From the NCBI RefSeq assembly GCF_045037415.1, contig NZ_CP173438.1: a stretch of DNA of 64,000 nt. The stretch is one strand, 5' to 3'. This DNA comes from Escherichia coli. GTDB lineage: Bacteria > Pseudomonadota > Gammaproteobacteria > Enterobacterales > Enterobacteriaceae. The notes under the pieces were generated by a model that did not search any database, was not told the origin of the DNA, and was given only the letters and a program-made list of their open reading frames with translations. Below are positions 34,275 through 34,988 of this stretch, piece after piece (positions within the stretch are counted from its first letter, which is position 1; every line of letters begins with the position of its first letter). The translations under genes were made by a program, and so were the position numbers.

Positions 34275-34379
34275 ACTCTTTTGCTGGAATAAATAGTTAT
34301 TGCGAATAGGTGCTGCTAAATGTTGGTTGCTTGTGTAAAATATAGTGGTAAGGTGTCTTTTTTATAGTGGTAAGTACGC

Positions 34380-34988
34380 ATGGACTATTTTTACATAGCA
34401 ACTAAATCGCAAAATCCTTGGGTTAAGTATAGGCCTTTGGCAGTAGGAGATTTAGCTAGCACCTCATTCCCAAATCCCTTTTTTAATTATTTCTTAAGTT
34501 CAAACATCCCTCCAATACCAGTAAATGTTAACGGGCATCTAACTGACTATACGAGAATGCAGTGGCTTTATGGCCTAAAGACAGGGTCACTTACTACTAA
34601 GTGTTCTGTACAGGATATAGCGGCAGTTGGTCAAGAATTGGCTATGCATTTTTGTAAATATACTAGAGAACTGATTTGGGAAGCCGTTCGAGTTGAATAT
34701 TACCCAAAAAAGCCTTCAAGACAGAAATGCTTATGGGTTTCACAAGGTGAAGAAAGTCTTTACTATTGGATTTCGCAGTTGGGATTGGGGGACAATCAGA
34801 CTGTGTTCAGAGTTGAGTTGGATGGAGTTATACATGAGGCGAGTGATGAACATTTGATGAATGACGATATACCGTATGATATTGCCTTAGAAAAAGCTCA
34901 TAAATATTGGAGTGGTGAAATAGTTGATCCGTTAAAAAAGGAAATACTTTTTGAAGGAAATATGCGGATTCTAGAGCACATTTTATAG
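34380..34988 (+). CDS. Hypothetical protein, low-GC moron after lysis cassette
   Basis: 202-aa ORF, strongly AT-rich, preceded by a 12-bp direct repeat TATAGTGGTAAG x2; no family assigned. Confidence 0.5.
   Translation: MDYFYIATKSQNPWVKYRPLAVGDLASTSFPNPFFNYFLSSNIPPIPVNVNGHLTDYTRMQWLYGLKTGSLTTKCSVQDIAAVGQELAMHFCKYTRELIWEAVRVEYYPKKPSRQKCLWVSQGEESLYYWISQLGLGDNQTVFRVELDGVIHEASDEHLMNDDIPYDIALEKAHKYWSGEIVDPLKKEILFEGNMRILEHIL

Follow-up and report, generated by a model that had tools for sequence, protein, structure and literature searches.

A DUF2441 gene of ADP-ribosyltransferase fold carried as moron-type cargo in the lysis-terminase slot of an Escherichia coli prophage

The window analysed here is a stretch of 64,000 nucleotides (nt) of Escherichia coli DNA (contig NZ_CP173438.1, assembly GCF_045037415.1) hosting prophage genes for lysis and packaging. 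Between the Rz/Rz1 genes and a block of HNH endonuclease and terminase genes lies an open reading frame (ORF) starting with ATG. Its product, 202 amino acids (aa) long, belongs to DUF2441, a family with the ADP-ribosyltransferase (ART) fold, and the gene is very likely the cargo of a moron-type cassette. With modest confidence, the protein is viewed as an enzyme using nicotinamide adenine dinucleotide (NAD). The gene and its flanking signals are listed first, and the neighbouring genes thereafter.

34380-34988, + strand: coding sequence, 202 aa, DUF2441 / BC2332-like, ADP-ribosyltransferase fold, no signal peptide
34275-34379, + strand: AT-rich leader of 105 nt, GC 0.35, from the Rz stop codon to the ATG
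34341-34352, + strand: repeat copy 1, TATAGTGGTAAG; TATAGT at 34341-34346 matches 5/6 of a -10 hexamer, 39 nt before the ATG
34363-34374, + strand: repeat copy 2, TATAGTGGTAAG; stops 5 nt short of the ATG, overlapping the Shine-Dalgarno site of orthologues
34987-35008, + strand: terminator-like hairpin starting at the stop codon, CGCC-TTCT-GGCG core, -5.9 kcal/mol, with a run of six T
35009-35041, + strand: conserved cassette tail, TTGCCATCACCATGGACAAAC..., with the inverted repeat ATCATC-GT-GATGAT
34055-35052, + strand: variable (mosaic) segment comprising the 3' third of Rz/Rz1, the DUF2441 cassette and the downstream tail, delimited by blastn against L007-L010
32995-33330: holin of the lambda family, upstream of the DUF2441 gene
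33334-33810: GH24 endolysin, upstream
33807-34274: Rz, upstream
34027-34233: Rz1 lipoprotein embedded in Rz, upstream, lipobox VVGC
35060-35410: HNH endonuclease, downstream of the DUF2441 gene
35527-36030: P27-family terminase small subunit, downstream of the HNH gene
36027-37760: terminase large subunit, downstream of the small subunit

The GC content of the ORF is 0.38, compared with 0.50-0.59 in the flanks. Sliding values of 0.36-0.41 are found over 34200-35099; the lysis genes are at 0.47-0.53 and the HNH/terminase region is at 0.50-0.60. An earlier note on this DNA had described a strongly AT-rich ORF located between Rz/Rz1 and the HNH-terminase block; the dip in GC and the neighbouring gene calls bear out both statements.

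Loci used for comparison are labelled by L numbers. L001 is the prophage of strain THO-003 and L020 is phage phiES15; P numbers (P0002 etc.) label DUF2441 relatives. In relatives carrying the same endolysin/Rz and HNH/terminase genes (L007-L010), blastn homology to the window is lost at about 34036-34054, inside Rz, and regained at 35053-35060, where the HNH gene begins. Because the first breakpoint falls inside Rz, the 3' third of this gene and most of Rz1 have been exchanged along with the cargo. The gap between Rz and HNH is occupied in L008 by iss, a homologue of bor, on the opposite strand (1467-1760), and in L009 by a 74-aa ORF. In L010 the slot is empty, and an Rz1-like lysC gene is directly followed by the HNH gene. 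An unrelated hypothetical gene is found in the slot of phage SfI. The presence of iss in the same Rz-HNH gap of the related prophage L008 is in line with the earlier proposal that the gene occupies the position used by lambda for bor. Homology of the protein to Bor/Iss was considered and rejected, as it has no lipobox and neither family is found in the Pfam, PHROG and NCBIfam results. The slot of L002/L028 (L002 7714-9543) also hosts a PHROG 1579 glycosyltransferase and an IraP-like anti-adaptor.

Morons, as described by Hendrix and Juhala, are inserted between genes which are adjacent in relatives, deviate in base composition, and have their own promoter and terminator. Three of these features, all but the promoter, are evident here. 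The insertion is evident from comparison with L010, and from the different cargo of L008 and L009; the base composition deviates as reported above; a terminator follows the gene, weak in the window, conserved and stronger in six other enterobacterial loci. The moron or accessory nature suggested in the earlier note finds support in the low GC of the insertion, in the variability of the slot and in the terminator-like hairpin after the stop codon. The gene is thus regarded, with high confidence, as a horizontally acquired moron-type cassette of a lambdoid prophage with HK97-type packaging.

The hairpin is best understood by comparison with the orthologues. In seven of ten enterobacterial loci a CCGCC-N4-GGCGG element followed by 5-7 T is found 13-17 nt after the stop codon. 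The loops are variable, and the stem is changed in a compensatory manner to CCACC/GGTGG in L006. The hairpin of the window is a weakened copy of this element, in which the outer pair has been lost and a 4-bp CGCC/GGCG stem is left. The DNA of the window is 81% identical to that of L006 through 35041, and the tail motif is also found in L033 and L035. Since the tail, of about 35-45 nt, is common to L006, L033 and L035, which have different packaging genes, the mobile unit reaches as far as 35041, and the sequences following the hairpin may mark where the cassette recombines.

Over 901 bases including the gene, the window shares 100% identity with chromosomal prophages from human, dog and wastewater E. 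coli, and several of the strains hosting the identical 901 bases are labelled O25b:H4-ST131 (sequence type 131). In strain THO-003 the prophage adjoins tRNA-Ser and mtfA, and features a lambdoid early region, an HK97-type head and a contractile tail. The gene has been identified in 49 of 5,426 complete E. coli genomes. Every copy is at least 99% identical, and diverged copies were not detectable at the DNA level in this set; together, the two results point to a single recent acquisition.

The integrase of the THO-003 prophage (L001 1684-2734) is annotated as frameshifted, so that excision may be defective in some hosts at least. Also present in this prophage are hokD, dicB and a gene for a YdaT-family toxin. 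The window includes another cargo gene of low GC (0.37-0.42) at 31507-32898 (+ strand), between a Q-like DUF1133 gene and the holin gene. It encodes a 463-aa P-loop ATPase assigned to PHROG 6841 (E 6e-103), with weak similarity to ORC/Cdc6-type proteins (TIGR02928, E 5e-9) and to defence ATPases (mad8, DS41_1, IetA).

Near-identical DNA was not found in sequenced phages, the sole match being Cronobacter phage phiES15, in which the orthologue is gp27 (41% protein identity). This phage is UV-induced, and hence functional. Orthologues sharing 41-78% identity with the window protein are similarly located after the spanin genes and before the small terminase gene, on the late-operon strand. The same slot is used in L002/L028, L004, L006, L013-16, L032, L033-35 and phiES15. 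The phages carrying them differ in holins (Phage_holin_8/3_7), endolysins (GH19, PHROG 7) and terminases (Nu1/GpA, Hendrixvirinae type, PHROG 51). Other locations have also been observed. In L030, a viral contig (3122-5589), a homologue sharing 47% identity is found directly after a Q-like antiterminator and before holin/endolysin genes, in the so-called stx slot, and no terminator-like hairpin is found 3' of it. A 35% relative adjoins the integrase gene at the end of another integrative element in L011, and a more distant relative is found in a mobile-element-like contig (L021). A 382-aa fusion protein called in L038 proved to be an artefact of ORF calling, as the real start is MEYIQDQKFYHI, and only DUF2441 was detected in it. 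Further late-operon cargo is present in phiES15 (L020 2970-4489), where genes for a Ser/Thr kinase and a PP2C phosphatase lie between Q and the lysis genes.

Assignment of the protein to DUF2441 is close to certain, and so is its ART fold. Residues 90-179 match Pfam DUF2441 (PF10386; E 3.7e-11), and the full length matches PHROG 9842, of function unknown (E 2.4e-130). The protein is annotated by RefSeq as DUF2441 domain-containing. The earlier note had recognised no family and had recommended searches with profile hidden Markov models and structures; once run, these identified the DUF2441 family and the ART fold, and the statement that no family is recognisable has to be abandoned. The family itself is already known and functionally uncharacterised, and the window protein is an additional member of it. 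At E <= 1e-3, 618 relatives were found among 1.84 billion representative proteins. Almost all are 170-240 aa long, and they come from many bacterial phyla, from phages and from one Asgard archaeon. The only relative of solved structure is BC2332 of Bacillus cereus (2AUA), retrieved at E 1.6e-9 with the single sequence and at 5.5e-33 with the family profile. The N-terminus, MDYFYIATKSQ, includes neither a signal nor a lipobox.

The fold has been examined in an AlphaFold (AF2) model built on an alignment of 115 sequences (predicted local distance difference test, pLDDT, 96.3; predicted template modelling score, pTM, 0.88). The model has the fold of 2AUA and the split beta-sheet of ARTs. It matches a long run of ADP-ribosyltransferases, including Arr (5.8), SopF, CC0527/DUF952, DarT, OspC3 and TreTu, followed by pertussis-like toxins, Tpt1, RES toxins, PARPs and diphtheria toxin. 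Foldseek searches of AFDB50 retrieved only DUF2441 proteins, from many phyla, and only uncharacterised phage proteins were matched in a viral structure library. None of the 115 family members matches other ART families of Pfam. These results agree with the placing of DUF2441 in the Pfam ART clan (PMC7955679) and of the BC2332-like family in the ADP-ribosylation superfamily of SCOP (d.166.1.6; PMC3000352). By reverse templates of ProFunc, 2AUA had been reported by the structural genomics centre MCSG as a 'certain' match to the active site of diphtheria toxin (PMC3024214).

Nine residues (E97, E101, R104, S113, W130, Y176, W177, E188, G193) are invariant in all the 115 sequences, whose mean identity is about 25%; N32, P112, R114, W119 (108/115), G149 and A173 are nearly so. 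The window protein has all of them. The model shows W119 as part of strand 118-122 and W130 as part of the helix after it (124-134), while E188 opens strand 187-200. The two Trp residues are 11 positions apart. In diphtheria toxin the site is made of H21, Y54, Y65 and E148, and the same spacing of 11 residues separates the aromatic pair in diphtheria toxin (Y54/Y65), exotoxin A (Y470/Y481) and PARP1 (Y896/Y907). BC2332 features, at the same columns, His in strand 1, Tyr in place of W119, Trp 11 residues later, and Glu in the E188 column. The W-X10-W / E layout would thus reproduce the H / Y-X10-Y / E arrangement, and this would explain the published template match of 2AUA. By spacing and order of the elements, a candidate NAD pocket would be formed by Tyr5, Trp119-X10-Trp130 and Glu188, the latter being the putative equivalent of diphtheria toxin E148. 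Between the first two strands and the aromatic strand, some 75 residues (roughly 40-110) are inserted, made of a hairpin and two helices. On this insertion lies the invariant E97/E101/R104 face which, along with P-S-R 112-114 and Y176-W177, is plausibly part of a substrate site specific to the family.

Taken as a whole, the data are best explained, and here too our preference is a moderate one, by a moron-type cassette which encodes a cytoplasmic, NAD-using enzyme of ART fold and would be transcribed also in the lysogen. NAD+ would be bound in a pocket of the diphtheria-toxin/PARP type, with the nicotinamide stacked between Trp119, on the strand, and Trp130, on the following helix, so that W-X10-W would stand for the classic Y-X10-Y. 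Tyr5 would take the place of the strand-1 His, and the catalytic acid would be Glu188, with which the last hairpin begins. ADP-ribose would be transferred to an acceptor, the site of which could be shaped by Glu97, Glu101, Arg104, Ser113-Arg114 and Tyr176-Trp177. The gene would also be transcribed on its own in the lysogen, and the terminator would keep this transcript out of the packaging genes. The product might serve the lysogen or the prophage, for example by excluding other phages or by conditioning the host. The use of NAD is regarded as slightly favoured by the residue pattern; a role in the lysogen, such as phage exclusion, is proposed in a tentative way, and is the less probable part of the scheme. 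By analogy, a defence role is possible.

Several observations weigh against this reading, at the levels of active site, expression and biological role. The N-terminal strand of the family has the motif [FY][YF]-H-[IV], and His is found in 100/115 sequences; the window protein has Tyr (Y5), as have ten relatives. The strand-1 His contacts NAD in H-Y-E enzymes, and the inactive Y-Y-V triad of PARP13 includes the change of His to Tyr. The two states are interspersed in the clade to which the protein belongs, Tyr being found in the window protein, P0002, P0006-9, P0013, P0023 and P0025, and His in P0012, P0016, P0020, P0021 and P0029. The toggle suggests that the position is perhaps not catalytic, or that NAD is bound differently; as His and Tyr alternate and both are seemingly tolerated, the residue could be a ligand contact rather than a catalytic base. 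In addition, the pocket has been mapped by motif spacing, order of secondary structure elements and published template match, and is a putative one.

The Tyr found here and in the ten relatives also fits a non-catalytic, ART-like protein binding an NAD-derived or other nucleotide ligand, as a sponge or a sensor, or a protein partner. No activity is known for any family member, and no conserved partner gene (antitoxin, macrodomain or immunity gene) has been found across at least 15 loci, as would suit a non-toxic protein. We regard such a binder as quite unlikely, because nine residues, mostly charged or aromatic and active-site-like, are invariant in 115 sequences sharing only about 25% identity, and the putative catalytic Glu is found in 115/115. 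Moreover, the several His/Tyr toggles, with all else fixed, suggest that both residues work.

A different substrate would be implied by kinship to Arr. The cargo would then be a resistance gene, encoding a small-molecule ADP-ribosyltransferase which inactivates a rifamycin-type or other antibiotic. Arr enzymes are also encoded by solo genes lacking an immunity partner, and a local motif, L-x-V-G-D-x-h-x-x-G, follows strand 1 in both proteins. This motif emerged from an hhalign comparison of the family with an alignment of 23 Arr sequences. The match covers only 16 columns, around L-x-V-G-D, and is non-significant (E 0.016, probability 3%); global and low-mact modes were uninformative. Pfam Arr-ms matches 0/115 family members, the ~75-residue insertion and the C-terminus set the protein apart, and the family-invariant residues are not, by eye, those of Arr. 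A resistance gene of this kind is therefore considered very unlikely.

As to expression, the case for autonomous transcription in the lysogen is built chiefly on the conserved terminator which immediately follows the stop codon. In the window itself the hairpin is weak (4 bp, z -0.85), and lies below the 5-bp threshold of the terminator scan. No full sigma-70 promoter was identified by consensus scan in 34275-34379, and no -35 box is evident. A -10-like hexamer (TAnnnT, at least 4/6 matches) is found 36-39 nt before the ATG in 8/9 loci, three of which represent one lineage, where the hexamer begins with the spanin stop codon. At the same distance from the ATG as the TATAGT of the window, phiES15 has TATAGTG. 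A -10-like hexamer of this kind is found in 14-37% of shuffled leaders. Judged from these sequences, a promoter belonging to the DUF2441 gene is plausible.

The two exact 12-bp copies reported upstream of the gene in the earlier note are indeed found at 34341-34352 and 34363-34374. The motif occurs exactly twice in the window. An exact direct repeat of at least 12 nt was obtained in 31/20,000 dinucleotide-preserving shuffles of the 105-nt intergenic region, and is thus unlikely to occur by chance. As the 10 nt following the two copies are unrelated, the structure is a 12-mer repeated at 22-bp spacing, and not a 22-bp tandem duplication. The earlier note had taken it as suggestive of a promoter or a regulator site. 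The repeat could equally well be an allele-specific duplication with no regulatory role, its overlap with the -10-like element (copy 1) and with the ribosome-binding region (copy 2) being incidental, and we hold the chances of this neutral origin to be even. The 12-mer is not repeated in the orthologous leaders; the 49 E. coli copies, as similar as they are, offer no independent conservation; the leader has no Rfam match at E <= 1, and no significant RNA fold (z-score -0.82). Against neutrality stand the rarity by chance of an exact 12-mer at a spacing of two helical turns, and the presence in L002 of degenerate TGGTA and TGGAAGTA elements at both positions. The ribosome-binding region of the window is weak (GTGGT), and orthologues have at this position GGAAG, AAGGGG or AAGGAGG; ordinary Shine-Dalgarno sequences are found there in L004, L006, L013 and phiES15.

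In all the lambdoid loci seen, the gene has the orientation of the late operon, and in phiES15, L032 and L033 a mere 35-39 nt separate it from the spanin gene. These data, and the lack of a promoter in the consensus scan, fit pure late expression. The enzyme would in this case serve the phage, with the Q-antiterminated late promoter as the sole source of its transcript, along with that of the lysis and packaging genes. It could counter host defence, modify host or phage macromolecules late in infection, or be packaged in the head and injected at the next infection. The location of the L030 copy directly after Q, the retention of the gene in the inducible phage phiES15 and its closeness to HNH/terminase genes are all consistent with this alternative; phage ARTs are often found beside terminase and portal genes, and head packaging has been proposed for them (Iyer et al. 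2022, PMC9503650). We nonetheless rate it as rather improbable. A conserved intrinsic terminator after the stop codon lacks an obvious purpose in an antiterminated read-through transcript, and lysogenic-conversion cargo typically shows such low GC and such a pattern of presence and absence. One homologue, moreover, adjoins an integrase gene, outside any late operon, and MuF or portal domains are not fused to family members, which are almost all of 170-240 aa.

Concerning the role, no match at E <= 1 was found to the defence families of PADLOC-DB 2.0, and searches of NCBIfam, anti-phage models included, gave only a chance match (E 0.17). Functional studies of DUF2441 or BC2332 were not found in the literature searched. 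A distant homologue, P0078, is encoded in chromosomal loci (L017 3732-5675; also L018 and L019) 286 nt downstream of a gene for a 327-aa SEFIR/TIR_2 protein, on the same strand. The association could hint at TIR/NAD biology, or be a coincidence.

The location of the gene is also reminiscent of toxin genes carried beside lysis cassettes. LT-II enterotoxin operons are found between a lysis gene, on their 5' side, and the small terminase gene, on their 3' side (PMC3252337), and by parallel with these and with Stx genes the protein could be a eukaryote-directed toxin, released at phage lysis. A toxin role for BC2332 was the subject of speculation by the MCSG authors (PMC3024214), and the host lineage is largely made of human-derived E. 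coli, including ST131. This alternative is regarded as extremely improbable: the protein is a single 200-aa domain lacking a signal peptide, a B subunit and translocation or receptor-binding domains, and the family is hosted by free-living bacteria of many phyla and by an Asgard archaeon.

A cassette-borne NAD-using enzyme, expressed also in the lysogen, remains our preferred explanation. A bolder extension of it is speculative, and improbable as a whole. DUF2441 might represent an unrecognised class of single-gene, phage-borne ADP-ribosyltransferases, endowed with a non-canonical (Tyr/His)-Trp-X10-Trp-Glu site. Expressed by the prophage, the window protein might ADP-ribosylate a phage or host macromolecule, either a nucleic acid or a translation/packaging factor, and thereby confer superinfection immunity on the ST131 lysogen or, conversely, disarm host defence. 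In either case it would define a new defence or counter-defence family, travelling via the lysis-terminase slot of lambdoid phages.

The interest of the gene resides in the fact that DUF2441 is widespread (618 representative clusters), has had a crystal structure since 2005, and is still without known function. Late-operon moron slots in temperate phages of enterobacteria repeatedly carry members of one of its branches, and one such prophage is carried by human-derived E. coli, ST131 included. The system offers a tractable entry point, as it includes E. coli as host, phiES15 as inducible relative, clear candidates for catalytic residues and a polymorphism of clean presence or absence. Should the protein prove an active ART, knowledge of its target would reveal what temperate phages gain from it, be it exclusion, counter-defence or host conditioning; if inert, the gene would be ordinary hypothetical cargo.

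Among known systems, lambda bor and E. coli iss share with the DUF2441 gene the genomic slot (iss in L008) and the nature of low-GC, moron-type cargo. Their products are outer-membrane lipoproteins of about 97 aa, encoded on the opposite strand, whereas the window protein is cytoplasmic, 202 aa long and encoded on the late-operon strand, and is related to them neither in sequence nor in fold. LT-II, the AcrIF11 anti-CRISPR ART and T4 Alt, ModA and ModB are, similarly to the window protein, phage-encoded and of ART fold. LT-II also has the lysis-terminase slot in common with it, and AcrIF11 is likewise a small, solo prophage ART. In contrast, all of these belong to other ART families (R-S-E for LT-II, Alt and Mod), with no detectable sequence relation to the window protein; LT-II comes with a B subunit and has a signal peptide, and AcrIF11 has aca genes as neighbours, none of which are seen here. 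Arr (PF12120; 2HW2, 9IAF) is again a small, solo ART, in which the L-x-V-G-D turn is found, as well as an aromatic residue followed by Trp 10-11 residues on; a significant profile match is lacking, and the window protein differs from it by the large insertion and the C-terminal half.

A further comparison concerns the H-Y-E ARTs, represented by diphtheria toxin, exotoxin A, PARPs and DarT. The window protein deviates from them in having Tyr for the strand-1 His, Trp for the Tyr aromatics and the ~75-residue insertion. Translocation and receptor domains are absent, as is a partner resembling the DarG of DarT. Presumed common features are the aromatic pair, spaced by 11 residues and borne by a strand and the helix after it, and the invariant Glu opening a late strand, to which the match of the 2AUA template to the diphtheria toxin site can be added. 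BC2332 (2AUA) differs from the window protein in being encoded by the chromosome of a Firmicute, rather than as prophage cargo; identity is 22%, and the H-Y-X10-W-E site contrasts with the Tyr5 and Trp119 of the latter. Both proteins are single domains of about 200 aa, and share the invariant motifs RE..E..R, PSR, W, YW.G and E.L(F).G.

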